Assembly (NCBI GenBank): GCA_026395965.1
Contig: JAPLXS010000006.1
Coordinates: 10,851 to 74,850 of the forward strand
DNA from: Candidatus Nomurabacteria bacterium
GTDB lineage: Bacteria > Patescibacteriota > Minisyncoccia > Phycocordibacterales > UBA9973
Direction: 5' to 3'
Length of the DNA stretch: 64,000 nucleotides
Shown here piece by piece: positions 5,462-63,517 of this stretch (its first letter is position 1; each line of letters opens with the position of its first letter). The position numbers and the translations under genes are program-made. The notes beneath the pieces are model-generated. The model was not told the DNA's origin, searched no databases, and saw only the letters and a list, made by a program, of their open reading frames with translations.

Positions 5462-5520
5462 ATTTTTGATTATAGCATTTATTTAAATTTTGGTCTTTAA
5501 AATAGATAAATAATTCAATT

Positions 5521-5540
5521 TTTAGACGTCCAACGTCTAA
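5521..5540. repeat. REP-like palindrome tttagacgtccaacgtctaa, copy 1.
   Basis: Read directly from the sequence. Confidence 0.5.
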
Positions 5541-5590
5541 TATATTTAAAAGGTAGTCGAAAAATATGCTTATAAAATAAGGTATATTTT

Positions 5591-5613
5591 TTTAGACGTT
5601 GGACGTCTAAAAA
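5591..5613. repeat. REP-like palindrome tttagacgttggacgtctaaaaa, the reverse complement of copy 1. Together they form an 89-bp inverted structure.
   Basis: The arms at 5522-5540 and 5592-5610 are exact reverse complements. Confidence 0.5.
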
Positions 5614-5621
5614 TCTAACGG

Positions 5622-13925: not shown

Positions 13926-13998
13926 GGGCCTTTAGCTCATCTGGTAGAGCGCCTCATTTGCAATGAGGAGGTAAGCGGTCCGAGTCCGCTAAGGTCCA
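13926..13998 (+). tRNA. tRNA-Ala (anticodon TGC). CCA is not encoded.
   Basis: Cloverleaf read by hand. Acceptor stem GGGCCTT/AAGGTCC with the G3:U70 Ala identity pair. Anticodon loop tttgcaa. T-arm agcgg-tccgagt-ccgct. Confidence 0.85.
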
Positions 13999-14004
13999 CA
14001 TATT

Positions 14005-14032
14005 AAAAAAGCTCCATAAATGGAGCTTTTTT
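14005..14032 (+). terminator. Intrinsic terminator immediately after tRNA-Ala. It is the core of a much longer palindrome (see findings).
   Basis: aaaaaagctccat-aa-atggagctttttt. Confidence 0.6.
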
Positions 14033-14351
14033 AATATGTGGACCTTAAGAAAGCAAACTGCTTTGCTTTCGTGCGGACTCGGACAGCGGAATCATATTTT
14101 TGAAGCATTAAAAATAGATGAGCTGGTGCCTAGACAAAACTTTTTGTAGAAAAAGTTTTAGTCGAGGGAGAGAAACGTACTCGTGGTCCGCTAATTCTAA
14201 CCAACCTTCTTTACTTGACACTTACAACAATAGTGCTACCATATATACCATAAAGTTCTTTAATATTATTTAGTAACGGTTTATTGGGTTTTCCCCGCTT
14301 CTTTATAGAAGTAGAGATAACTCAATAAATTAACAACTAAATACGATAAAC

Positions 14352-18960: not shown

Positions 18961-18983
18961 TTTAGGGGTTGGACCCCTAAAAC
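18961..18983. terminator. Hairpin tttagggg-ttgga-cccctaaa downstream of uvrC. A partial copy lies inside tgt.
   Basis: 9-bp perfect stem, read directly. Confidence 0.45.
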
Positions 18984-20288
18984 TTACTTCAGGAAGTTTT
19001 TATTTCTTTTTAGTTTATGAAATGCTATAGCAAATCGATGTGCTTCGGTATTTATTAGTAGTATTTCTTTCTTGTATTTTTTAATTAATACTTCATCACC
19101 CATTATTGCTTTGGCTTTATGTTTGTCATCTTTTACTACTGATACAACTGGGATTTTAAATTGATACCTATCAAGTACAGCCTTGGCTACATTTACCTGA
19201 GCTACACTACCATCCATAACAATAAGGTTAGGAAGCCCCCATTCAATATGTCGGAGGCGCCGAGACAGAACTTCTTCTAAAGCACCAGTATCGTTTGATT
19301 TTGTTTGGGTTTTTATTATAAATTTCTTATATTCACCTTTTTCCAATTCCCCATTTTCAATAACAGTCATTACGCCTACCATACTAGACCCTCCCATGTG
19401 TGCTATGTCATAAGCCTCGATACGAAACTTTAGAGTATCATTATTTTCTGGAATATAATTACCAAACATTTCTTCCCTCAGAAGAGCAACATCATTTATA
19501 TGTTCAAGAGCAAAAATTCTTTTCTTTATTTCACCTGCTTTTTCGAATTCTTTCTTTTTTGCAGCAGCAACCATCTCTTTCTTAAAATTTATTATTACGC
19601 TTTTCTTTTTTCCTTCAAAAAATAATTTAAGATTTTTAATATTATTTTTATATTCTAAAGACGCAGCAGAAAATTTATTTTTAGTTGAATCATCCCAAGT
19701 TTTAGAGGTACAACCACCGGAGCCACATATGGTTGGACTTCTAAAACTTTGAGACTCAACAAAAGGAACTAGACCTAGCTGTTTATAAAATTCTTTATTA
19801 TTTTTTTTACTGGACTGCTCATCTATAAATGGAAATATTCTTCTTATTATTTTCATCGCATCTCTTAACTGTAATCCATTTGGAAAAGGCCCGTAGACTA
19901 CTTGGTAATTTTCTTTCTTTAAATATCTACCACGAATAACCAAAACCTTTGGTATTTGATCTTTTGTTATACAAACATAATTAAAACTCTTATTGTCCTT
20001 TTCTTTTGTATTATACTTGGGTTGATATTTCTTTATTAGATTGGCTTCCAATATTAAAGCCTCGAGAACACTATCTGTCTCTTTCCATTTTATAGAAGTT
20101 GCTATGGTTACCATATCAAGCAACATAGGACCACGAGTCACTATCAAATCCTTGCCAAAATAGCTCTTTACTCTATCTGCTAGTGAGGTGGCTTTACCTA
20201 TATAGAGTATATCTTTGCCTTTATAGAAAAAATAAACACCTGGGGCTTTAGGTAACTTAATATTTTTTAACTGTTGACTATTCATCAT
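18984..20288 (-). CDS. uvrC: Excinuclease ABC subunit C, short form with GIY-YIG and RNase H-like endonuclease domains. The C-terminal (HhH)2 domain appears to be absent.
   Basis: GVYFFYKGKDILYIGKATSLADRVKSYF is a GIY-YIG motif. IEAYDIAHMGGSSMVGVMTV...IVMDGSVAQV is the UvrC endonuclease domain. Only 434 aa. Confidence 0.7.
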   Translation of the reverse strand: MMNSQQLKNIKLPKAPGVYFFYKGKDILYIGKATSLADRVKSYFGKDLIVTRGPMLLDMVTIATSIKWKETDSVLEALILEANLIKKYQPKYNTKEKDNKSFNYVCITKDQIPKVLVIRGRYLKKENYQVVYGPFPNGLQLRDAMKIIRRIFPFIDEQSSKKNNKEFYKQLGLVPFVESQSFRSPTICGSGGCTSKTWDDSTKNKFSAASLEYKNNIKNLKLFFEGKKKSVIINFKKEMVAAAKKKEFEKAGEIKKRIFALEHINDVALLREEMFGNYIPENNDTLKFRIEAYDIAHMGGSSMVGVMTVIENGELEKGEYKKFIIKTQTKSNDTGALEEVLSRRLRHIEWGLPNLIVMDGSVAQVNVAKAVLDRYQFKIPVVSVVKDDKHKAKAIMGDEVLIKKYKKEILLINTEAHRFAIAFHKLKRNKNFLK

Positions 20289-25541: not shown

Positions 25542-26933
25542 TTATTTTGAATACTTATTTAAAAATTCATTTTTAAAATCATGAAATGTATTATTTAAAA
25601 TTGAGTTACGCATGTCTGAAACTAGTTTAGTTATAAAATATATATTGTGTATTGAAGCAAGTGTAGCCCCCAACATTTCTTTTGCACGGAAAAGATGAGA
25701 CATATAACTTCTGGTGTAGTTCTTGCAAGTATAGCACTCACAGCCTTCATCTATAATATTAAAATCTTCAACAAATTTTGCATTTAGAATATTTATTTTA
25801 CCATTTTTTGTAAACATAGTTCCATTGCGAGCTATACGAGTAGGACCTACACAATCAAAAAGATCTACTCCATTTTCAACTCCCATAAATAAATCAATTG
25901 GTTCGCCTATTCCCAATAAATGGCGAGGTTTTTCTTCTGGAAGAATTTCATTTACCCACTTAACAGCAGTAGACATATCTTCCTTTGCAAATGAACCACC
26001 AATACCAAAACCATCAAAATCCATACTTCCAATAACCTCTGCGGATTTTTTACGAAGTATTTCTGAGCGTCCACCTTGAACGATACCGAAGAGTGCCTGA
26101 GGCAGAACCTGAAGATTTTGCTCAGGCGAATTGGTCTGGCCCCTCGTCCTTCCTCGTCCGAGGACCTGAGAATGAGCAAAATCTTCAGGTTCTGCCTTAA
26201 TCGAAGCAGGAATTTTTAGAGATACAACCTCAGATTTGTCGAAAGGTTGGACCCCTAAAACTTTCTGCGAAGCTTTATTTTCTTTAATATTTTCTAATTC
26301 TTTATGTTTAGTTAAACTCCTCTTTGCCCATGCGTGAGTACGGGAAAGAGCTTCTTCTTGATATTTGTCATTTTCAGTAGGAGAAGTACATTCATCAAAA
26401 GCAAAAATAATATCTGCTCCGAGATTGTGCTGAATCTCTATCGATTTTTCTGGAGTAATATAATGAAGTGAACCATCTATATGTGATCTAAAAGATACTC
26501 CATCATTACCAACAACTGCAAGTCTTGGAATACCATCATCAACACTTGAACGTTCTGCTATGAGCAAACTAGGGTCAGTAACTGCAATAACTTTTGATAT
26601 TTCTTTTCCATAAGCAACTCCTAAAGAAAAAACTTGAAAGCCACCTGAGTCAGTCATTAGAGGACCAGACCAATTCATAAATTTATGTAACCCACCCGCA
26701 TCACGAATAAGTTCATCTCCTGGTTGTAAATATAAATGGTAAGTATTGGCAAGTGTTACTTGAACTTTGTCTGAAATTAGTTGTTCTGTTGTAACACTTT
26801 TAACAGTTCCTTTCGTACCAACTACAACAAAAGATGGTGTAAGGATATCACCATGTGGAGTAGAAAGTACTCCTGCCCTTCCCAAAAAATTTGGGATTTT
26901 CTTTTCTATTTTAAAATTTAATGCTTTTTTCAT
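25542..26933 (-). CDS. tgt: Queuine tRNA-ribosyltransferase, carrying an in-frame insertion of about 55 aa before the ALFGIVQGG motif.
   Basis: GTKGTVKSVTTEQL, LANTYHLYLQPG, MTDSGGFQVFSLG and ALFGIVQGG match Tgt. The segment between WAKRS and ALFGIVQGG is about 73 aa against about 20 in E. coli Tgt. Confidence 0.85.
   Translation of the reverse strand: MKKALNFKIEKKIPNFLGRAGVLSTPHGDILTPSFVVVGTKGTVKSVTTEQLISDKVQVTLANTYHLYLQPGDELIRDAGGLHKFMNWSGPLMTDSGGFQVFSLGVAYGKEISKVIAVTDPSLLIAERSSVDDGIPRLAVVGNDGVSFRSHIDGSLHYITPEKSIEIQHNLGADIIFAFDECTSPTENDKYQEEALSRTHAWAKRSLTKHKELENIKENKASQKVLGVQPFDKSEVVSLKIPASIKAEPEDFAHSQVLGRGRTRGQTNSPEQNLQVLPQALFGIVQGGRSEILRKKSAEVIGSMDFDGFGIGGSFAKEDMSTAVKWVNEILPEEKPRHLLGIGEPIDLFMGVENGVDLFDCVGPTRIARNGTMFTKNGKINILNAKFVEDFNIIDEGCECYTCKNYTRSYMSHLFRAKEMLGATLASIHNIYFITKLVSDMRNSILNNTFHDFKNEFLNKYSK
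26101..26196. repeat. Palindromic element inside the tgt coding sequence: 24-bp perfect inverted arms flanking a 48-bp GC-rich core.
   Basis: Arms ggcagaacctgaagattttgctca (26101-26124) and tgagcaaaatcttcaggttctgcc (26173-26196). Core ggtctggcccctcgtccttcctcgtccgaggacc. Confidence 0.6.
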
Positions 26934-27038: not shown

Positions 27039-27070
27039 GTAGCCCTCCGCAAGGAGGGCTACTTTTATTT
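27039..27070 (+). terminator. GC-rich hairpin gtagccctcc-gcaa-ggagggctac plus T-tract, plus-oriented, overlapping the stop of the NYN gene.
   Basis: Read directly. It stands out against the AT-rich background. Confidence 0.4.
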
Positions 27071-27642
27071 TAAGACTTATCATCTTTATGTTTTAACTCT
27101 CTTCCCCAAATGTCTGCTTCTATCTTTAATACATCAAAGTATCCATCTCCCCCTGTTCTTAATTCTTGGGATATATTATTTTTTGAAGAAAAAGTAAAAA
27201 CTTTTTTTCCATCATTACGTAAATAATTTACTAATGCTAGAAAATCTGAATCGCCAGTAAATAAAATAGCTGTATCATATTTTTTACAAAAATGCATCGC
27301 ATCTATTGTCATTTCAACATCCATATTACCTTTTTCTTGTATTAAATCACCTAAATCACTATGCTCCACAATTCTTTTTAATTCCTTTTTTCTAACAGTA
27401 AAACCTAAACCCTTTTTAAGATAAGTATAAAATTTATGTTTTGAATCCTGGCTTTTTTCTCTAGTCCCTTCCTTAGGATAAGCAGTATAGTAAAATATTT
27501 GAATATCTGAGGCATTAAATTTTTCTTTCAAAAAAAACTTAAGTTTTTCAAAATCAAACATTCTTCCTTTTACCTTTTGAGCCTGCCAAAGATTTGATGC
27601 ATCTATAAATACATATATAATTTTTTTATTTTCATCAATCAT
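27070..27642 (-). CDS. NYN-domain (LabA-like, PIN-fold) ribonuclease.
   Basis: IYVFIDASNLW, DVEMTIDAM and ILFTGDSDFLALVNYLRNDGKKV match the NYN/LabA acidic-residue pattern. Confidence 0.6.
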   Translation of the reverse strand: MIDENKKIIYVFIDASNLWQAQKVKGRMFDFEKLKFFLKEKFNASDIQIFYYTAYPKEGTREKSQDSKHKFYTYLKKGLGFTVRKKELKRIVEHSDLGDLIQEKGNMDVEMTIDAMHFCKKYDTAILFTGDSDFLALVNYLRNDGKKVFTFSSKNNISQELRTGGDGYFDVLKIEADIWGRELKHKDDKS

Positions 27643-27671
27643 AATTAACTACCATAAGACTTAAAAAATAA

Positions 27672-28775
27672 TTATTTACCTGACTTAGTTCTATTATCCT
27701 CTTTACACAACATCTGACAATTATCAGCAATAGTTCTTCCTCCTTCATGCCATGGTTTTATATGATCAGCTTCCATATCTCCAATTGAAAATTCTTTTTT
27801 ACAAAAAGGACAAATACCATCTTGTCGTTCATATGACTCTCGTTTCATATTTGATGTAAATGCTCGAATAGAAAGATATCTCTCTTTTTTAGTAAGTACA
27901 TATGGATAAATACCAGATTTTTTTGTTACATCTTCATCTTGCATTAATTCTTTGATTTCGTTCTCAAGTTTTTTAGAATCAAGTTTTTTATCATTAAATG
28001 TATTATAAAGTTCACCCCAATTTACGCTAGACATTTCTTTTCTATAATTAGGAAAAACTTCTCGCACCCAATGAATTACATTTTGAAAATATTGCCATAG
28101 TTTATCCGCATTTTTATCGTGCTGATGTTTTGACATATAATCTTCTATCTCTTCATCATTTATCCATGATAATGCAGTTTCTAAATATTCTTGTCGAATT
28201 GGAGAACCAGTTATTAATTGCCCTCCGTCATTTGCAAGCAAATATGCAGCACAATTTGTTTTACTAAATTTTAGTTTTACATCAGAAAGCCACGGTCCTG
28301 TATATACGGCATTTCTAAGTTCTTGATTCGTTAATTCCATTCCCGCAATATTGATAATCTTAAACCAATCAAGCTTTTCTTTCTCTTCTCCTTCGCAATG
28401 ATAAATCATAAGTTCATAATTTAAAATCTGTTCTTGTTCTTCTTTGGTTAAATTATGAAACATTGCGGTTCGTCCATTGAAATCAATTGAAAAATCACCA
28501 TTTACATATTGAGCTATACTAATTGTTCTTTGTTGTCCATCAAGTACTTCAAAATTTCCGTCTTCCTTTTTTACCCAATACATAACATTAAGTGGAAAAT
28601 CCTTTTTAATTGTTTTGATTACCTCGTCACGATGTTTAACATCATATACAAATTCTCGCTGGTATTTTGGACGAATATCTAATTTACCACCAAAAGCAGA
28701 TACTCCTTCTTCGGCGCTATCTTTATAGTCTTTTACAACTTCTTCAATTTTAATTTTATGTAAATCTATTTTCAT
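27672..28775 (-). CDS. DUF262 (ParB/Srx-like NTP-binding domain)-HNH endonuclease fusion. Candidate restriction or defence nuclease.
   Basis: PKYQREFVYD and LDGQQRTISI are the DUF262 signatures. The C-terminal CPFCKKEF...DMEADHIKPWHEGGRTIADNCQMLCKEDNRTK is a canonical HNH motif. Confidence 0.65.
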   Translation of the reverse strand: MKIDLHKIKIEEVVKDYKDSAEEGVSAFGGKLDIRPKYQREFVYDVKHRDEVIKTIKKDFPLNVMYWVKKEDGNFEVLDGQQRTISIAQYVNGDFSIDFNGRTAMFHNLTKEEQEQILNYELMIYHCEGEEKEKLDWFKIINIAGMELTNQELRNAVYTGPWLSDVKLKFSKTNCAAYLLANDGGQLITGSPIRQEYLETALSWINDEEIEDYMSKHQHDKNADKLWQYFQNVIHWVREVFPNYRKEMSSVNWGELYNTFNDKKLDSKKLENEIKELMQDEDVTKKSGIYPYVLTKKERYLSIRAFTSNMKRESYERQDGICPFCKKEFSIGDMEADHIKPWHEGGRTIADNCQMLCKEDNRTKSGK

Positions 28776-28776
28776 A

Positions 28777-29871
28777 TTATTTTTTTACCTTTTTATTTCT
28801 TATAACTATTCGAACATAAGTAGGTTTACCATTTATTGCACCATCTTTATCTTTAATAAGTCCGTGATCTTTAAATGGCACTCTATCATTAGTTCTGATG
28901 TTATTTGAGCTTATTATTTCAAATTGCGCTGGGTTATATTTATCTAAAAATGTTATTGGCACCCCCATTGCTCCTTTATAATCCATTGGAATATCACTTA
29001 CTTTGTCAATATTTATAGCTTTATAATTGTCATATTCTAGAAATTCTTTTGGTGAATATTTTTTATATAAAGTCATTTCTTGGTGACGTTTTATAGTATC
29101 TAGGTTTGTAAACCACATAATACGCCCCATACTAAAAAATTTTATATTATTTTCAATTTTTATTCTCGTCTCTGTTTCTATATTATAATCATCAGGAACT
29201 TGGAACCATTTAGTTCCACCATTATCATAGCCAAGCCACAACTTATCTTCTTTAATCAATTTAAAAGTTTCTTTATATGTGATAGCATTTTGATCACCAA
29301 GAATCAAAAATTTTTTATTATATTCAACTAATTGTGCAACATATTCTCTAAATAATGAAAAAGGAGGGTTAGTTACTACAATATCCGCCTGTTTTAAAAG
29401 TTCAATACTTTCTAGACTTCGAAAATCTCCATCGCCATTCATAGGCAACCATTCGTTGTTTTTATTTGCTTTTAGTTGTTCTGCAATATCACGCAAATCA
29501 AAAGCACCGTCACCATCTAAATCATGAACTTCATTTATAATAAATTTATTAGCATTCACTTTTGGACGACCTTTTACCGAAACAAGTGTTTTATCATTAC
29601 CAAATAATGCCAACTGAGTATTGGCAATTGGTGAAGGTTTATAACTAGTAGCAATAAGCCTTTTTAAACCAAGAGCATTAAAGTTTGATGCAAAATATTT
29701 AAAAAAATTACTTTCAAAAGGATCATCACAGTTACAATATACTACTTTGTTACGAAATTGTTCCTTGTAGTGTTTTAACTCTTTTTCAATATCAATAAGC
29801 TGAGTATAAAACTCATCCTTTTTTGCTTTGTTTGCCTTATGTAAATTATTATTTAATGATTTAGTAACCAT
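28777..29871 (-). CDS. N6-adenine DNA methyltransferase of the EcoRI-methylase-like family.
   Basis: DEFYTQ near the N-terminus, VVYCNCDDPFESNFFKYF, and catalytic motif IV IVVTNPPFSLFREY (NPPF). The family assignment is from memory of M.EcoRI-like proteins. Confidence 0.6.
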   Translation of the reverse strand: MVTKSLNNNLHKANKAKKDEFYTQLIDIEKELKHYKEQFRNKVVYCNCDDPFESNFFKYFASNFNALGLKRLIATSYKPSPIANTQLALFGNDKTLVSVKGRPKVNANKFIINEVHDLDGDGAFDLRDIAEQLKANKNNEWLPMNGDGDFRSLESIELLKQADIVVTNPPFSLFREYVAQLVEYNKKFLILGDQNAITYKETFKLIKEDKLWLGYDNGGTKWFQVPDDYNIETETRIKIENNIKFFSMGRIMWFTNLDTIKRHQEMTLYKKYSPKEFLEYDNYKAINIDKVSDIPMDYKGAMGVPITFLDKYNPAQFEIISSNNIRTNDRVPFKDHGLIKDKDGAINGKPTYVRIVIRNKKVKK

Positions 29872-31715: not shown

Positions 31716-33161
31716 TTAGTATGACTTCGCAAAGATAACTCTACCGTTTGAGGGTTTACCTGATTTAATACACACGCCAGATTCTTCAACTTGATCAAAA
31801 GGAATACAACGAACAGTTGCTCCTGTTTCTTTTTTTATTTCTTCTTCAACATCAGCACTACCAGAATAGTGTGCTCTTACAAATTTACCTGATTCAATAG
31901 CCTTAATAAAGTCTTCCCAACTATCTACTGATATTGTGTTTTCTACAAGACGATTATTGGCTTGCTCAAAAAGATTATTTTGAATTAATTCGAGAGTACT
32001 TACAACTGCTTCATTTAAATCTGGAAGTGATACAGTTTTCTTTTCTCCAGTATCTCTACGAACTATAACAACTGTATTACTAGCTAAATCCTTTGGTCCG
32101 ATTTCTATACGAAGAGGAATACCTTTTTTCTCCCATTCATAATATTTTTCACCTGGACGAATATTTCTATCGTCTAGTTTTGAACTAATACCCACCAACC
32201 TTAGATTAGAAAAAACAGTTTGTGATTCTTCCATAACCAATTGCTTGTCCCATTCTTTTGGAACAATAGGAACAATCACAACTTGAGTAGGAGCAATTTT
32301 AGGAGGTAATACCAATCCTTTATCGTCACTATGAGTCATAATAAGACCACCAATAACACGAGTAGATAGACCCCAACTAGTCTGCCATCCGTATTGCTTA
32401 GTACCTGATTCATCTAAAAAATTTACATCGAATGCTTTAGCAAAATTTTGTCCAAGATTGTGTGAAGTAGAAAATTGTAAAGCTTTTCCGTCTTGCATCA
32501 TTGCCTCTATAGTATAAGTATCTTTTGCTCCTGCAAACTTTTCTGATTCTGACTTTCTTCCTGGAATAACTGGGATAGCCATATAATTTTCTGCAAAATC
32601 TTTATAAATATTCAACATCATAAGTACACGATTTTGAGCTTCCTCTTCAGTACTATGAACAGTGTGCCCTTCTTGCCAAAGAAATTCTGTTGTACGAAGA
32701 AACAAGCGTGTTCGCATTTCCCATCTTATAACATTCGCCCATTGATTTATTAAAAGTGGTAGATCTCTATGTGAACGAATCCATTTTGAAAAAACTTCGT
32801 ACATAATAGTTTCTGAAGTCGGGCGAAGAATTAGGGGTTCTTCCAATTTTTTACCACCGGCATGAGTAACAACAGCAACTTCAGGAGCAAAACCTTCTAT
32901 ATGACTTTCTTCACGCTTAAGAAGCCTCTCTGGGATAAGCATAGGAAAGTAAGCATTCTCTACTCCAGTTGCTTTGAATTTTTCATCGAGTATTTTTTGA
33001 GTTTTTTCCCATAATGCATATCCACAAGGTTTAATAATCATGCATCCTTTTACAGGAGAATTTTCAGCTAATTGCGCTGCTTCTATAACATCCAAATACC
33101 ACTGACTGTAATCTACAGCCCTGCTAGTAATCTTTTTTTCATCATTTTTAGTTTGTTCCAT
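31716..33161 (-). CDS. proS: Prolyl-tRNA synthetase, short archaeal/eukaryote-like type without the editing insertion.
   Basis: Class II aaRS motifs, about 480 aa, YSQWYLDVIEAAQLAE N-terminus, and a C-terminal zinc-binding domain ending in Y. Confidence 0.9.
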   Translation of the reverse strand: MEQTKNDEKKITSRAVDYSQWYLDVIEAAQLAENSPVKGCMIIKPCGYALWEKTQKILDEKFKATGVENAYFPMLIPERLLKREESHIEGFAPEVAVVTHAGGKKLEEPLILRPTSETIMYEVFSKWIRSHRDLPLLINQWANVIRWEMRTRLFLRTTEFLWQEGHTVHSTEEEAQNRVLMMLNIYKDFAENYMAIPVIPGRKSESEKFAGAKDTYTIEAMMQDGKALQFSTSHNLGQNFAKAFDVNFLDESGTKQYGWQTSWGLSTRVIGGLIMTHSDDKGLVLPPKIAPTQVVIVPIVPKEWDKQLVMEESQTVFSNLRLVGISSKLDDRNIRPGEKYYEWEKKGIPLRIEIGPKDLASNTVVIVRRDTGEKKTVSLPDLNEAVVSTLELIQNNLFEQANNRLVENTISVDSWEDFIKAIESGKFVRAHYSGSADVEEEIKKETGATVRCIPFDQVEESGVCIKSGKPSNGRVIFAKSY

Positions 33162-35427: not shown

Positions 35428-35500
35428 TGCCGGCATAGCTCAGTTGGTAGAGCGCCACTTTTGTAAAGTGGATGTCCGGGGTTCGAATCCTCGTGCCGGC
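35428..35500 (+). tRNA. tRNA-Thr (anticodon TGT). Discriminator U.
   Basis: Acceptor GCCGGCA/TGCCGGC, D-arm agctcagttggtagagc, anticodon loop tttgtaa, T-arm ggggttcgaatcctc. Confidence 0.8.
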
Positions 35501-35507
35501 TCCCGAA

Positions 35508-35536
35508 GAAAAAACACCCTAAACGGGTGTTTTTTC
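35508..35536 (+). terminator. Intrinsic terminator after tRNA-Thr.
   Basis: aaaaaacaccc-ttaaac-gggtgtttttt. Confidence 0.6.
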
Positions 35537-35836
35537 TTGGCACGAGGATTCGAAAGACGGAGGCTGTCGAGCCGAGTCACCCAGTAGGTCAATCTACTGA
35601 TTGAGGATCGCGCAAAAATTCAGTAGAATTTTATGCGTGATGATTCCTCGTGTCTATCCCCTACAGACGATGTGCACGTAAGTCAATCTACTGATTTGAC
35701 CCATAGGGTGATTCTGTTGAATCAATGTCGCGAATTTTTTCAGTAGAAAATTATGAATCTCAATTACTCATACCTTTTTCCAAATAAAAAATCGCTAGTG
35801 AATAGAGATTTTCTATCCAACTAGCGATTATATTTT

Positions 35837-39495: not shown

Positions 39496-39510
39496 AATTT
39501 TGAAGTATAT

Positions 39511-39548
39511 CTTTACCGGTCTAAACCCATGGGTTTAGACCGGTAAAG
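39511..39548. repeat. Perfect 17-bp-arm palindrome ctttaccggtctaaacc-cat-gggtttagaccggtaaag.
   Basis: Read directly. Confidence 0.5.
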
Positions 39549-39570
39549 ATTATTATTAAATAAAAAAAAT

Positions 39571-53553: not shown

Positions 53554-54294
53554 TTATTTAATTTTATTTTTCCAATCTTCAATATTTTTTTGGTGGCCAG
53601 ACAAAAGAACAGGTGGAACTTTATATTTCTTTTTATTATGAATCAAAATTTCTGGACGAGTATATATCTCGCTCGAAGAAACTCTTTCTTCTTCACGAGA
53701 ATTAAAATTACCCAATACACCTTCTATTTGACGAGATATAGAATCCACCAAAATCATAGCGGGTATTTCTCCTCCTGTGAGAACGTAATCCCCTATCGAC
53801 AACTTCTTTGTTTTCAAAATTTTATCTACTCGGGCATCTATACCTTCATACCTACCACAAATCATAATTATATCTGTATATTTTTGTGAAAAATTCTTTG
53901 CAATTTTAGTATCAAATTTTTCAGCAGATGGAACGAAATTCACCGTTAGTATTTTTTTAGAGGTCCAACCTCTAGCTGGCTTCGGAGGTTGTACCTCTAA
54001 AAAAATACTAGATTTTGGGTGTTTTTTTATAATTGAAGCTCTAGTAAATTCAACTGCTTTAATTATTGGCTCTGCTCTCATAACCATACCAGGTCCTCCT
54101 CCATAAGGTCTGTCATCTACTTGGAGAGATATATTACCGTCTGGCCAGACTTTTTTATACTTACCTGTAACAAATTTTCTTGGATTTACAAATGTAACTT
54201 TTATTTTCTTATTTTTTATTGCCTTGCCTAAAATAGACTCATTCAAATATGAGTCAAACATATCTGGAAATAAAGTAATTATATGAAAATGCAT
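53554..54294 (-). CDS. trmD: tRNA (guanine37-N1)-methyltransferase.
   Basis: MHFHIITLFPDMF, DDRPYGGGPGMVM and the SPOUT-fold C-terminus. Confidence 0.9.
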   Translation of the reverse strand: MHFHIITLFPDMFDSYLNESILGKAIKNKKIKVTFVNPRKFVTGKYKKVWPDGNISLQVDDRPYGGGPGMVMRAEPIIKAVEFTRASIIKKHPKSSIFLEVQPPKPARGWTSKKILTVNFVPSAEKFDTKIAKNFSQKYTDIIMICGRYEGIDARVDKILKTKKLSIGDYVLTGGEIPAMILVDSISRQIEGVLGNFNSREEERVSSSEIYTRPEILIHNKKKYKVPPVLLSGHQKNIEDWKNKIK

Positions 54295-57199: not shown

Positions 57200-58060
57200 A
57201 TGAAAAATTTAAAAATTATATTTCTATCATTATTTACTTCTGTAATATTTTTTACTGCTGTTATTTTTATAATAAATAAATTAAACAACACAAAAGAAAT
57301 AGCTCAAGAACCATTAGACATAGGAGTACTTGAAAATAAAAATATTGAAATATATGAGGTCAAAAATAGTATTCCCGATGAAGACAAAGATATTTCACCC
57401 AAAATAACCATTGATAATAATTCTTTAATTACAAAAACAAAAGACAATATCAAAAAAATAAAATCACCATTTGTTTGTTCAAAATCAAATACAATATTTG
57501 AAGATATGTCATATTTAAATATAGGACAAATAAAAATGCTACCAGACGCATCTTATATACCAGAAGATTTAATAAATTTAGATTCAGAATCAAGTACTAC
57601 AAATGAAATCTGTTTAACCCAAGAAACAAAAAACTCATTTGAATCTTTAATAAAAAAAGCTAAAGAAGATGGATACATGATAAAAGCAAGTTCAGGATAT
57701 AGAAGTTATGAGACTCAAAAAAATTTATTTAATACTATGCTAAACAGCGGGCAATCAGATGCACTTGTTTCAGTAGCTAAACCTGGATACTCAGAACACC
57801 AATTAGGCACCACTGTGGACCTCACTGGATCATCAATAGATTACAAATCGGCTGCAAGTAATTTTAGTGGAACACCAGAAGACAATTGGCTCAAAAAAAA
57901 TGCTTACTTATACGGATTTATTCAAAGCTACCCCAAGGGCAAAGAAGAAATAACAGGATACAAATACGAACCTTGGCACTACCGATATATTGGAATTGAA
58001 AAAGCAAATGAACTAGTAAAAAATAATCAAACTATTACAGAATACTTTACAAATAAATAA
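57200..58060 (+). CDS. Peptidase M15-family D-Ala-D-Ala carboxypeptidase (VanY-like), membrane anchored.
   Basis: SGYRSYETQ, GYSEHQLGTTVDL and EPWHYRY match the M15B zinc-binding motifs. Confidence 0.7.
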   Translation: MKNLKIIFLSLFTSVIFFTAVIFIINKLNNTKEIAQEPLDIGVLENKNIEIYEVKNSIPDEDKDISPKITIDNNSLITKTKDNIKKIKSPFVCSKSNTIFEDMSYLNIGQIKMLPDASYIPEDLINLDSESSTTNEICLTQETKNSFESLIKKAKEDGYMIKASSGYRSYETQKNLFNTMLNSGQSDALVSVAKPGYSEHQLGTTVDLTGSSIDYKSAASNFSGTPEDNWLKKNAYLYGFIQSYPKGKEEITGYKYEPWHYRYIGIEKANELVKNNQTITEYFTNK

Positions 58061-58061
58061 T

Positions 58062-58093
58062 AAAAAGACCATCGTGCACACGATGGTCTTTTT
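58062..58093. terminator. Bidirectional terminator.
   Basis: aaaaagaccatcgtg-caca-cgatggtcttttt. Confidence 0.6.
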
Positions 58094-58098
58094 ATTAT

Positions 58099-60378
58099 TT
58101 ATTTTGCGTATGCAGTTGCATCTTCCATATGGATAGATAGCAGCTTTGAAGCACCTTCAGAACTCATAGTGACTCCATAGAGTACCTGAGCTCGTGACAT
58201 GGTCTCACGGTTGTGAGTAACCACAATAAGCTGTGAATACTTTGATAGGTTTTCCAACATATTTCCGTATTTACGAGAGTTTGCTTCATCAAGAGCTGCA
58301 TCTGTCTCATCTAAAACAAGGAATGGTGGTGGGTTTACCTGAGAAATCGCAAACAAAAGTGCTATAGAAGTTAAAGATCTTTCACCTCCTGATAGCATGT
58401 GTAGATCTTTAACTTTTTTGTGTGGAAGATTTATATTTATCTCTATACCTCTTTCAAAACCAATTTCATTTTCATCTTCATCTGTATCTATTTCTTCCCC
58501 TTCTGCTACAGATTCATCATTTTTCTTTGGCTTTTTGTGTTCCATAGTTATAGAAAGAAAAGCTCCTCCCCCACCAAACATAAGTGCAAAAAATTCTTGG
58601 AATTGTTTGTTTATTTTTTCTACGCCTCCTTTGAATTCTGCATCCAATTTTTCTTTTAATTCCTGAATCAAGATATTGCAATCCTTTATACTTTTATTTA
58701 AATCTTCGATTTCTTTTGCCAAAAATGCATCACGCTCGGTGGTCTCTTCATATTCTTTTATTATATCTCCTCCACCACCACTACCTGCATCTTCAATCTT
58801 TATCTTTATGCGTTCTATCTTACGACGAAGTTCTTCTTGGGATGAACGAACGATATCTAATGTTGATTCCATTTGTGCAAAAGATATTATTTCTCTTCCT
58901 ATTAGAACTCCAGCTTCAGCAAGCTCCATCTCAAATGCATTTTTAATCATTGAAAGTTTTTCTTCTTCAAATGAAAGTGAATGGGCACTAGAAGTAACTT
59001 CGTTTTTCTCATGCAATAAACCATACAATACACGCTCTCCATCACGGTATGAAGCTTGGTTTTCTTGTTCTTTTTGTTTAAATCCTGAGATAATATTTAA
59101 TATTTCTCTTTCTTCTATCTGTATTTTTTCTATTTCTTTTACAATCTTATCTTTTGTCTTTAATACTTCTTTATATTCAACATTATCATCAAGTGATAGA
59201 TTTTCTTCTTCATTTGAATCTTTGTTGTCGAAAAACCCACTCAAGCGTGATTTGATATTATTAAGAGTATTTACTATGCTCTCTAGATTTTCTACTTTTA
59301 TAGCATCATCTATCATTCCTGATATATCTGCAATAAAAATTCTCCATTCTGACTCTCCTATTACTTTATTTTTGACTTCTTTAACACGAGAATACTGGCG
59401 TTCTATACCTTCAATGATTCCCTCTATGCGTCCTTGCTTACGAAGTAATTCATTTTTAGTACTTCGAATAACTGAAATTTTATTTTCATTTTCTTCTATT
59501 TTTTTTGAATAAATATTTTGTACTTGATTTTCGCTATTTTGTTTTTTAAGTTCTTCAATACGAAGATCAAGTGAAGCTCCTTTTTCAGTCAACAAACTAC
59601 GAACTTCAGATAGCCTATTTTTCTCTTTATTTATGTATGTACCTTCATTCGAAAGATAAGTTTTATACAGATTACGAAGTTCCTCGCGCATCTCTCTTGC
59701 ACGCTCTACTACTTGTACCTGCTTTTTTAAGAAAGCAAGATGCGGAGCTATCTCACGTCTTAAAGCTCCTACTTCTTTTATATTCAAAAGTGTCTTGTCT
59801 AATTTTCGTGTTGATTCTTTTATTCTAAATTGATACACCTTCAAACCTAGTGCATCTTCTATCATACCTCTACGTTCTTTATTTGATGCATTTAAAACTC
59901 TATCCGCTTCACCTTGAGAAATAATATGATGTCCTGAACTTCCTATATTTACAGAAGCGAGCAAATCCACAATATCTTTGAGACGTACTTCTGTATGATT
60001 GATAGAATATTTATTTGCACCATCTGCATAAACTTCTCTACCTATTACTATCTCATCATAGTCTAGAGATACCCCTAGTCCACTATTTGTAAAAGAAAAT
60101 ATTTTATTTGTATTATCAAAAGTCATTAACACCTGTGCACGATTTGAAGAAGAGAGACCCTTTGAACCCTTAAAGATAAGGTCAATACCCCCTTTTCCAC
60201 GAAGAGATTTCATAGATTGTTCACCAAGTACAAAACGTATAGCTTCTACTATATTGGACTTACCAGACCCATTTGGCCCTACGATAGAAGTTATGGGCGT
60301 TGTAAATGACACAACGCTTTTTTTACCAAATGATTTAAATCCTGTTAACTCAATAGATTTTAGAGTCATTTTAATCAA
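58099..60378 (-). CDS. smc: SMC-family ATPase, short (759 aa) with no recognisable hinge domain.
   Basis: N-terminal Walker A IVGPNGSGKSNIVEAIRFVLG. C-terminal signature LSGGERSLTSIALLFAI with Walker B LVLDETDAALD. Long heptad-rich middle. Confidence 0.7.
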   Translation of the reverse strand: MIKMTLKSIELTGFKSFGKKSVVSFTTPITSIVGPNGSGKSNIVEAIRFVLGEQSMKSLRGKGGIDLIFKGSKGLSSSNRAQVLMTFDNTNKIFSFTNSGLGVSLDYDEIVIGREVYADGANKYSINHTEVRLKDIVDLLASVNIGSSGHHIISQGEADRVLNASNKERRGMIEDALGLKVYQFRIKESTRKLDKTLLNIKEVGALRREIAPHLAFLKKQVQVVERAREMREELRNLYKTYLSNEGTYINKEKNRLSEVRSLLTEKGASLDLRIEELKKQNSENQVQNIYSKKIEENENKISVIRSTKNELLRKQGRIEGIIEGIERQYSRVKEVKNKVIGESEWRIFIADISGMIDDAIKVENLESIVNTLNNIKSRLSGFFDNKDSNEEENLSLDDNVEYKEVLKTKDKIVKEIEKIQIEEREILNIISGFKQKEQENQASYRDGERVLYGLLHEKNEVTSSAHSLSFEEEKLSMIKNAFEMELAEAGVLIGREIISFAQMESTLDIVRSSQEELRRKIERIKIKIEDAGSGGGGDIIKEYEETTERDAFLAKEIEDLNKSIKDCNILIQELKEKLDAEFKGGVEKINKQFQEFFALMFGGGGAFLSITMEHKKPKKNDESVAEGEEIDTDEDENEIGFERGIEININLPHKKVKDLHMLSGGERSLTSIALLFAISQVNPPPFLVLDETDAALDEANSRKYGNMLENLSKYSQLIVVTHNRETMSRAQVLYGVTMSSEGASKLLSIHMEDATAYAK

Positions 60379-63162: not shown

Positions 63163-63254
63163 AATAAGTCAACAAAGTCAATACCTTTAATATAAGGTAT
63201 TGACTTTAAATACATAAAGTCTTGTTTTTTATACCTATTAATTGTATTATATAA

Positions 63255-63400
63255 ATATATAGAGATTGTCATGGCTACCAACCATAATCCTTGTAAATAG
63301 GAAAATATCAATCCCTAGAAAAGAACAAAGTTGGGTGGAACCGCGACAAGACTCGCCCCGACAAAAAATGATGATTCATTTTTTGTCGGGGCCTTTTTTA
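63255..63400 (+). promoter_or_regulatory. Probable short T-box riboswitch leader of thrS: stem with an ACC-A specifier loop, a T-box sequence and a terminator.
   Basis: uuGGGUGGAACCGCG at 63332-63346 matches the T-box consensus AGGGUGGNACCGCG. It is immediately followed by terminator gccccgacaaaaaatga-tgat-tcattttttgtcggggc plus a T-tract (63355-63400). Candidate specifier loop cuACCAa at 63275-63281. The N=A pairs with the U discriminator of the tRNA-Thr in this window. Confidence 0.5.
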
Positions 63401-63431
63401 TTTATTAATTTAAAACGACGTAATTAAATAT

Positions 63432-63490
63432 AAAATTTTTTAATGGTCTGACACCTCGTCCTCCATCGTCCGAGGACCTTAAAAAATTTT
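63432..63490. repeat. Second copy of the GC-rich core tggtctgacacctcgtcctccatcgtccgaggacc, flanked by 12-bp perfect AT inverted repeats, in the thrS leader.
   Basis: Arms aaaattttttaa / ttaaaaaatttt. The core is about 88% identical to the core inside tgt. Confidence 0.55.
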
Positions 63491-63517
63491 GATATTTAAT
63501 GAAGTCATTAAAAACCC

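Follow-up and report, generated by a model that had tools for sequence, protein, structure and literature searches.

The two adjacent palindromic elements described here, which we call A and B and which lie in frame inside the tgt gene of a Candidatus Nomurabacteria bacterium, have their closest described counterparts among other short repeats that occur within genes. The Rickettsia palindromic elements (RPE), families RPE-1 to RPE-10, were reported by Ogata et al. (2000, 2002; as summarised in PMC10969869), and according to that review each family encodes one conserved peptide. Repetitive extragenic palindromic sequences (REP) are 20–40-bp imperfect palindromes with an unpaired GTAG or CGTC tag; intragenic REPs and REP dimers, GTAG- or CGTC-tagged, were described by Di Nocera et al. 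(2013; PMC3733652) in Opitutus, Rickettsia, Thauera and others, eight phyla in which the candidate phyla radiation (CPR) is not included, with uvrA/B and the genes for DNA polymerase I, DNA ligase and tRNA pseudouridine synthase among the hosts. Miniature inverted-repeat transposable elements (MITE) that fuse with open reading frames (ORFs) include QMITE1 of Coxiella (PMC5896051) and ERIC and BOX (reviewed in PMC10969869), and mitochondrial genes of Nematomorpha contain coding palindromes (PMC6649704). The stretch analysed here (the window) comprises 64,000 nt of contig JAPLXS010000006.1 (GenBank assembly GCA_026395965.1, positions 10,851–74,850), and an earlier reading of its letters alone, below the sequence-only reading, had proposed an RPE-like insertion in tgt.

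The tgt gene encodes a queuine tRNA-ribosyltransferase that matches PF01702 and is 100% identical to a Tgt-named protein from a Candidatus Nomurabacteria metagenome-assembled genome (MAG). We set the boundaries of the insert by aligning Tgt proteins and by comparing the DNA with L002 and L004, two of four syntenic loci from relatives (L001–L004; other L numbers denote stretches with element copies from relatives' genomes). The count of about 55 extra residues before the ALFGIVQGG block, made from the sequence only, was close: the alignment gives 56 codons (26106–26273), with the frame open and free of stop codons throughout, as had also been stated. The linker is thereby 62 aa longer than in the shortest homologues and about 56 aa longer than the usual linker of 15–18 aa.

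The insert consists of the two elements side by side (Table 1). Element A had been described as a 96-bp unit with perfect 24-bp arms around a GC-rich 48-bp core; the arms are indeed 100% complementary and are separated by 48 nt, but each is 25 nt long. Shuffling gave 0 matches to this inverted repeat in 100 trials, and the centre, GC-rich as proposed, is the local G+C peak (52%, with the window averaging 32%). Folded as mRNA, the insert region (186 nt) reaches −83.7 kcal/mol (z = −7.9), and a covariance model of the family (R1) scores the tgt copy of A at 68.6 bits (E = 9e-15). The adjoining ggttggacccctaaaac, previously taken for a partial copy of a hairpin found elsewhere, proved to be the second arm of a complete hairpin, element B, whose partner arm lies at 26213–26229; counted strictly, the two arms of B are thus 26213–26229 and 26245–26261. 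Each inner arm of B (TTTAGAGRTNCAACC) is half of a small palindrome, and B elements in general (about 50–63 bp) are inverted pairs of small TAGAGGT-NNN-ACCTCTA hairpins with a constant C·T mismatch. Direct flanks of the form GCTTC…TTCG(C) are conserved around most A and B copies, and the outer arms of B in tgt (GCAGAAAG…, GCAGRAA…TTYCTGC) enclose the A core in other Tgt genes. Because the cores of A and B occur inside the same flanks and outer arms, the two elements share a frame and differ in their centres. One example of the peptide that they encode is …AHSQVLGRGRTRGQTNSPEQ….

Table 1. Positions of tgt, of its composite insert and of the other A and B copies in the window
Feature	Position	Strand	Details
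tgt, queuine tRNA-ribosyltransferase	25542-26933	minus	463 aa / 463 codons; host of the insert
Composite in-frame insert	26106-26273	minus	168 bp, codons 221-276 (ASQKV...NLQV)
Element A	26100-26197	minus	arms 26100-26124 and 26173-26197, centre 26125-26172
Invariant A core, 34 nt	26133-26166	minus	GGTCCTCGGACGAGGAAGGACGAGGGGCCAGACC on the tgt sense strand
Element B	26206-26268		arms 26206-26229 and 26245-26268 (extended), loop 26230-26244
B 3' flank	26201-26205	minus	TTCGA on the tgt sense strand (tcgaa on +)
B 5' flank	26269-26273	minus	GCTTC on the tgt sense strand (gaagc on +)
Second A copy	63409-63514	minus	core 63445-63478, purine-rich strand on minus; AT-rich arms unlike the tgt copy
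B copy in UvrC-like gene (18984-20288)	19697-19749		in frame, peptide FRSPTICGSGGCTSKT
B copy in trmD (53554-54294)	53947-54010		in frame, peptide FLEVQPPKPARGWTSKK
Single small B-type hairpin, intergenic	18961-18984		TTTTAGGGGT TGG ACCCCTAAAA
Two B-like single hairpins, inverted orientation, intergenic	5518-5614 (at 5518 and 5592)		TTAGACGTCCAACGTCTAA

Both elements recur within the window. The core of A had been reported again at about 63444–63478, and we located the full 34-nt core at 63445–63478, including a 25-nt string (63454–63478) that matches with two mismatches where none would be expected by chance; R1 scores this second copy at 73 bits. Conservation in A does not extend to the arms: those of the second copy are AT-rich, are unrelated to those in tgt and belong to a subfamily that is also found in L024, L026 and L059. 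The hairpin at 18961 downstream of uvrC is present as described, but the 434-aa UvrC-like gene itself also carries an in-frame B, which is missing in the L004 orthologue. The B copies in this gene (19699–19747 when counted strictly) and in trmD (53954–54003) are read in different frames, and the same TrmD position in L085 holds an A element. The second A copy lies between a T-box-like terminator and the start codon of thrS, antisense to thrS, and in L027 and L062 a forward A copy occupies the same place in the thrS leader. A copy in this position thus has to be compatible with read-through. The T-box-like leader itself (63191–63398, GGGTGGAACCGCG; terminator hairpin 63355–63392 and then a T run) scores 23 bits against the Rfam T-box (E = 0.003, far under the gathering score); if real, it is a divergent CPR T-box.

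To follow the A core beyond the window we scanned 185,579 species, one genome each, with a degenerate exact pattern; a regular-expression search with fuzzy matching missed known cores and was replaced by Hamming scans and the covariance model. The exact pattern returned 92 stretches from 42 assemblies, with up to about 10 copies per genome. Every informatively named record was assigned to Paceibacteria, Paceibacterota or Nomurabacteria, or carried a 'Saccharibacteria' label on binned CPR MAGs; no Rickettsia-named record was among the 92 stretches of this exact-core scan, and the pattern had no match in viral contigs. There are thus further copies both in relatives, with these 42 assemblies, and inside the window, where A recurs at 63445 and B is found in uvrC and in trmD.

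Among 101 unique A-core copies, 38 lie in sense and 14 in antisense orientation within ORFs of at least 450 nt, and 49 are intergenic. The sense copies are distributed over the three frames as 18/9/11, one of them (L050) probably being a leader copy counted as genic. Besides Tgt, the hosts identified with Pfam are UvrA, UvrB, UvrC, peptidase M1, RNase HII, TsaD, NAD-ligase (LigA), LeuRS, TruB, Nramp, Dus, DNA polymerase I (PolA), a SAM methyltransferase, a class-V aminotransferase, TrmD and a VirD4-like ATPase. With Tgt included, the unrelated families of housekeeping genes in which the same DNA is read in frame number about 18, which bears out the RPE-like behaviour that had been proposed. 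Depending on frame and strand, the core yields the peptides SSDEGGRGAR, VLGRGRTRGQT or GPRTREDEGPD and, in antisense, SGSSSSLIRG and others. None of the 52 genic copies shifts the frame or introduces a stop codon, and we saw no copy that splits a gene; across intergenic copies only 19% of frames are open through the element. Taken together, these two results indicate that the genic copies are a selected subset. For B, the 806 kb of genome fragments that we examined contain 22 copies, 11 of them inside ORFs; 18 of the 22 consist of two inverted half-sites 15–16 nt apart, and single units also exist. When L001–L004 are compared with the window, peptides encoded by A or B can be recognised in most of the indels of at least 6 aa in UvrA, UvrB, UvrC and Tgt, and UvrB position 435 holds three different inserts in three genomes.

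To examine the architecture of A, we stacked 54 copies by the core only, so that the arms could not influence the alignment. A near-invariant block of about 34 nt (GGTCCTCGGAYGAGGGAGGACGAGGRGCCAGACC) stands out, and A as a whole (about 85–100 bp) consists of this GC- and purine-rich core between arms that are free in sequence and complementary to each other. All four types of Watson-Crick pair occur at most arm columns, and even the outermost bases differ between copies. In total, 84.7% of arm cells are paired, compared with 58.6% after shuffling and 40–51% when the partner is slid, and 401 cells are changed on both sides, compared with 111 in the shuffles. Close to the foot of the stem, each side has three unpaired columns (consensus TTC on both strands), with two further covarying pairs outside them; in linear sequence these 3×3 columns read GCTTC/arm…arm′/TTCGC.

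The same pattern is visible between the window and L001, where the tgt genes are 84% identical outside the insert (68% at third codon positions) and the A centres agree at 46 of 48 positions. The 25 arm pairs show three double Watson-Crick changes, one single change to G·T and the loss of one terminal pair, and the peptide encoded by the arm changes (KAEPEDFAH to TEESEDVAH). Since the encoded amino acids are free to change, the constraint on the arms is not on the protein. The orthologous sets L018/L052, L009/L068 and L038/L063/L088 behave likewise. Over all copies, 1569 Watson-Crick pairs stand against 14 G·T, 30 A·C and 114 other mismatches; on the mRNA-sense strand, wobble pairs are not in excess, the deviation being in the opposite direction (p = 0.02). 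As Watson-Crick-only covariation without a G·U excess is better read as complementarity of DNA than as an RNA stem, the pattern points to maintenance of the arms at the DNA level. Templated correction within quasi-palindromes is a known replication process, and it may be what keeps the arms complementary; alternatively, only those copies that can fold into a DNA hairpin might be maintained or moved. A search of the window and of the two loci against Rfam gave only tRNAs above threshold, and the sub-threshold hits to the hairpins were miRNA-like and were taken as generic. With no Rfam family at threshold, and with arms that covary while G·T (14) is rarer than A·C (30), we rejected a curated Rfam RNA as the identity of the elements.

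The position in Tgt is itself a recurrent insertion hot spot of hypervariable length. An alignment of 25 close homologues (72–89% identical) is nearly free of gaps except between HKKRExxK and PQALFGIVQGG, where the proteins carry from 0 to about 70 extra, unrelated residues. Across 114 homologues that are otherwise 60–89% identical, the linker ranges from 11 to 85 aa. At this point the A core is read in other frames, as SDEGGRGARP or SGPRMREDEGPD instead of the VLGRGRTRGQT of the window, and in some homologues in antisense, as WSGSSSSLIRGPENE; others have B alone (LEVQP…GCTSK). About 30 homologues (P0009, P0016, P0037, P0055 and others) hold a different palindromic cassette, KQEYxNSSRFTLKGSDATQNSHIxAS, whose arms in L055 are GCAGGAATATGC…GCATATTCCTGC, followed by TTCGC, and there are at least four additional cassette families at the site. 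In L055 the arm subfamily of the window's A also surrounds an inverted core, which recombination between the inverted arms would explain. The A+B composite is present in L001 as well, whose Tgt is 89% identical, and is common to the two by descent. As to whether the insert is lineage- or strain-specific, the elements are clade-restricted, while the composite hot spot is common to many relatives and so is not one recent, strain-specific insertion. Further small inserts occur at two other points of Tgt in a few homologues, including P0010, P0092 and P0108 (RPTESSGRA; KIEDGIDPVTGEARFTG).

The window Tgt aligns with the structures of Zymomonas mobilis TGT (E about 1e-87), and the insert maps between residues of about 186 and 194 of that protein, where a helix is joined to the strand opening with ALFGI. 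In a triosephosphate isomerase (TIM) barrel, the loops that lead from helix to strand are found on the other side from the catalytic strand ends. By alignment and barrel topology, the insert would thus form a loop on the face directed away from the catalytic ends. It is hydrophilic (mean hydropathy −0.59) and probably a disordered loop of 56 residues; an AlphaFold2 model based on the 25-sequence alignment was poor (pLDDT, predicted local distance difference test, 47.5) and gave residues 226–275 no secondary structure. A second peculiarity of these proteins is a conserved segment of about 30 aa at Tgt residues of about 106–141 (window about 26511–26618), which is present in all these Paceibacteria Tgt and missing from Z. 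mobilis TGT, where it would fall between residues 111 and 117.

The intergenic copies of A form a class with a strong orientation. An ORF beginning with ATG lies downstream in the orientation of the purine-rich strand in 43 of 49 cases and in the reverse orientation in two (p = 6e-11), the window's copy at 63409–63514 being one of these two. Typically, 40–47 nt separate the core from the start codon that follows, and 30–60 nt lie between the end of the upstream gene and the core. The downstream genes (dnaK, recA, atpD, rplL, thrS, ileS, gap and others) are functionally unrelated. Genic copies are biased as well (38:14, p = 0.001), and relative to the dominant strand of the neighbouring genes the orientation is 79:22, transcription and leading-strand readings not being separable in these data. 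None of the 45 window ORFs that begin with ATG and have at least 150 codons carries a Shine-Dalgarno-like 4-mer (GGAG, GAGG or AGGA) between −22 and −4, and many of the same 45 genes have a TATAAT-like box only about 5–12 nt before the ATG, which suggests that leaderless or very short-leader mRNAs are widespread in this organism. We rejected the core as a surrogate Shine-Dalgarno sequence, since its distance from the start codon, about 45–65 nt, is too great.

Compared with the RPE, A and B share a short palindromic form (RPE about 100–150 bp, A 85–100 bp), a small AT-rich genome of a host-dependent bacterium and many in-frame copies in unrelated housekeeping genes, where they presumably are translated into loops that the protein tolerates; long ORFs contain 52 of 101 A copies and 11 of 22 B copies, and no transposase is known for either group. 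There is no sequence relationship, as judged by the absence of Rickettsia-named records from the exact-core scan. Unlike RPE, A is read in three sense frames and also in antisense frames, only its centre is conserved while the arms vary with compensatory changes, and about half of its copies belong to the oriented class before start codons. In behaviour, A and B are closer to the intragenic REPs, with which they share host genes, and B resembles REP dimers as a pair of inverted small hairpins that folds into a larger one. REPs are mostly extragenic, however, and GTAG REPs are tied to RAYT (REP-associated tyrosine) transposases, whereas A and B are about half genic and no RAYT was found in the 806 kb. 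As to the tags, the B half-sites are 17–24-bp palindromes that start with (T/G/A/C)TAG, but their TAG is paired with CTA, and the A core contains CGTC twice on the pyrimidine strand, not in REP form.

Like MITEs, some of which overlap ORFs or carry promoters or small RNAs, A and B are small (50–100 bp, without an ORF of their own, within the MITE limit of <300 bp), non-autonomous, multi-copy and bounded by inverted ends. MITEs have conserved terminal inverted repeats for a cognate transposase and variable target duplications, whereas the termini of A vary and its flanks (GCTTC/TTCGC) are conserved; the inner arms of B, unlike the arms of A, are conserved. No parent insertion sequence (IS) is known for A and B, and none was seen in the 806 kb of genome fragments. 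The Nematomorpha genes are likewise functional genes of AT-rich reduced genomes with hairpin-forming inverted repeats in frame, but they are organellar, both arms encode conserved parts of the protein instead of dispensable loops, and the sequences are unrelated.

Optional GC clusters of yeast mitochondria are GC-rich palindromic islands that are sometimes in frame in a coding gene (var1); A and B share with them the in-frame GC-rich palindrome, whereas the yeast clusters are organellar and unrelated in sequence. Hairpins of integron attC sites, of IS200/IS605 elements and of REPs are recognised as folded single-stranded DNA. By analogy only, A and B resemble the attC and IS200/IS605 hairpins in that structure is kept while the stem sequence is free and in having a strand or orientation bias; the unpaired stem bases of attC-type sites are paralleled by the TTC/TTC internal loop of A and the constant C·T mismatch of B, and Watson-Crick-only pairing of the A arms is what such DNA hairpins would lead one to expect. 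Unlike A, attC has a loop that is neither conserved nor read as protein, and no integrase, HUH or Y1 enzyme was found (in the 806 kb, with an approximate IS608 TnpA query). The A/B family differs from typical MITE and RPE families in its invariant core, Watson-Crick-only covarying arms, internal loop, interchangeable centres and orientation bias. Full-text searches, with subscription journals mostly outside their scope, gave no report of such elements from CPR or Patescibacteria, in line with the novelty claimed for this group.

The explanation that we favour, with a probability of roughly 0.7, is that A and B are selfish palindromes like RPE and intragenic REPs, specific to the Paceibacteria/Nomurabacteria clade and tolerated as translated loops. 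The elements would most likely spread by an action on DNA hairpins or cruciforms, at GCTTCGC-like sites or within existing palindromes, and would persist only where they do no harm, that is, in short intergenic spacers or, if in frame and stop-free, in permissive protein loops. Genic copies would simply be translated, so that Tgt gains a loop of 56 residues. Recombination between arms would flip the core, and repeated insertion, nesting and partial deletion at one permissive point would produce a length-hypervariable hot spot such as that in Tgt. The sequence-only reading was, on this evidence, essentially right, and the phenomenon is larger than it described.

Several points weigh against this explanation. 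Neutral selfish DNA does not obviously predict a core that is more conserved than its host gene (46/48 against 84%), nor orientation biases of 43:2 (intergenic) and 38:14 (genic), nor the fixed distance of the intergenic copies to the ATG. We found no transposase or other mobilising gene, and a phmmer search of the 806 kb for ORFs like IS608 TnpA, with an approximate query, gave 0 matches; mobility is thus read from dispersal, translation of the insert from its open frame and, the structure model being poor, the surface loop from alignment and topology. UvrB, UvrC and Tgt yielded no clean filled/empty pair with an unambiguous target duplication, the sites being diverged and nested, and GCTTC on the left with TTCG(C) on the right can be read either as a 3-nt TTC duplication at GCTTCGC or as part of the element.

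Some of these points are what one would expect if A were primarily a functional, strand-specific nucleic-acid module, acting between cistrons or in 5′ leaders on mRNA stability, processing, termination or the start of translation, or serving as a site for a host protein, with the genic copies as by-products or themselves active in mRNA or DNA. Such a role, which overlaps the selfish-element explanation and does not exclude it, would account for the 43 of 49 intergenic copies (two in reverse) set 40–47 nt before an ATG, for a near-invariant core between variable arms and for copies that must be transcribed in the thrS leader of several genomes, lying as they do between T-box-like terminator and start codon; a GGAGG-rich core is also suggestive in a window where 0 of 45 genes has a Shine-Dalgarno-like 4-mer. 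We nevertheless consider it unlikely as the primary explanation. A selected RNA stem should tolerate wobble pairs, yet G·T is not enriched (14 against 30 A·C), the core is too distant from the ATG for a normal Shine-Dalgarno interaction, the window's own intergenic copy is antisense to thrS, the downstream genes have no common function, no Rfam family matches, and the orientation could be explained equally well by the locally dominant gene strand (79 against 22). A further, tentative possibility goes beyond either: A and B might be modular DNA-hairpin cassettes with shared outer arms, a TTC/TTC recognition loop and swappable centres, handled by a putative enzyme that acts on folded single-stranded DNA at GCTTCGC sites or hairpin tips, with the core recruited as an oriented intercistronic or leader signal and the surface loops of essential enzymes under continuing remodelling. 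If true, the cassette system would give CPR bacteria an intrinsic source of diversity in protein loops.

The remaining explanations concern the Tgt insert itself. Removal of the hairpins after transcription or translation, in the manner of an intron, a bulge-helix-bulge (BHB) motif, an intein or a translational bypass, would leave a mature Tgt without the insert, and both the very stable mRNA hairpin (186 nt, −83.7 kcal/mol, z = −7.9) and the conserved element ends (GCTTC…TTCGC) could be taken in its favour. Excised elements would need no open frame, however, and 52 of 52 genic copies are open against 19% of intergenic frames; moreover, 56 aa that start with Ala and end with Val before Leu-Pro-Gln are far too short for an intein, and Rfam gave no intron or ribozyme family. 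With Rfam hits only below threshold, we rejected an intein or intron identity for the insert and regard excision in general as very improbable. That Paceibacteria Tgt inherited the insert as an ancestral linker or domain specific to the lineage, diverged by slippage and point mutation and palindromic by accident, is hardly credible, although about 100 of 114 Tgt homologues have some extra sequence at this point and two genomes with 89% identical Tgt share the A+B composite. Dispersal already refutes it, the same DNA being found between genes and in about 17 other gene families; in addition, three frames and both strands are used at one Tgt site, amino acids change while base pairing stays, and, in the orthologue comparison that had been proposed as a check, some homologues of 60–70% identity lack the insert entirely (linker 11–16 aa). 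Both refuting conditions named in the sequence-only reading, no further copies and a homologous insert in all orthologues, thus turned out in favour of that reading. The window does come from a MAG, where faulty assembly or binning, for example a chimeric fold-back, could create a palindrome, but the same architecture in 42 independent assemblies from many studies, the mid-contig location, the intact ORFs and orthologous copies with substitutions of their own make the probability of an artefact practically negligible.

The window contains other repeats and variable regions. Downstream of the tRNA-Thr gene, at a distance of 41 nt, its 3′ part recurs in inverted orientation (35475–35561 and 35575–35760) and is followed by a third hairpin repeat family (CAGTAGGTCAATCTACTGA), which is fused to a truncated A core in L003 (11808–11870) and L044 and nested in B-element loops in L031 and L044. 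When we looked for a link of the core to signal recognition particle (SRP) RNA, tmRNA, RNase P RNA or the tRNA-Thr repeat, only this third family fused to a truncated core (L003) turned up. Long perfect palindromes stand at gene ends (13990–14047, 58051–58104 and 39509–39550; arms of 28, 26 and 21 nt, loops of 0–2 nt), one of them directly overlapping the tRNA-Ala 3′ end; they resemble bidirectional terminators and have no sequence relationship with A or B. Between tgt and mreC, three genes (27070–29871) encode an NYN-domain protein (also in L001), a 367-aa protein with an HNH-like C-terminal motif recognised by eye and a 364-aa ORF; they are missing from L002–L004 and may form a small variable or defence island. 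At 31716–33161 the window, like L001, has a prolyl-tRNA synthetase (ProRS) of 481 aa with ProRS-C_1; in L002–L004 the enzyme in the same syntenic position has about 420 aa and no ProRS-C_1.

Palindromic repeats that are read as protein were found first in Rickettsia and later, sporadically, as intragenic REPs in a few phyla; the Paceibacteria extend this range to the CPR and have a high density of coding palindromes, in a further group whose genomes are very small and whose lifestyle is dependent. A and B explain much of the length variation among housekeeping proteins that are otherwise 75–95% identical (Tgt, UvrABC, TrmD and others), which is relevant to annotation, to alignment-based phylogenomics and to the prediction of CPR protein structures. 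The architecture of A and B gives a definite starting point to the search for whatever enzyme or process maintains such elements, RPEs included.

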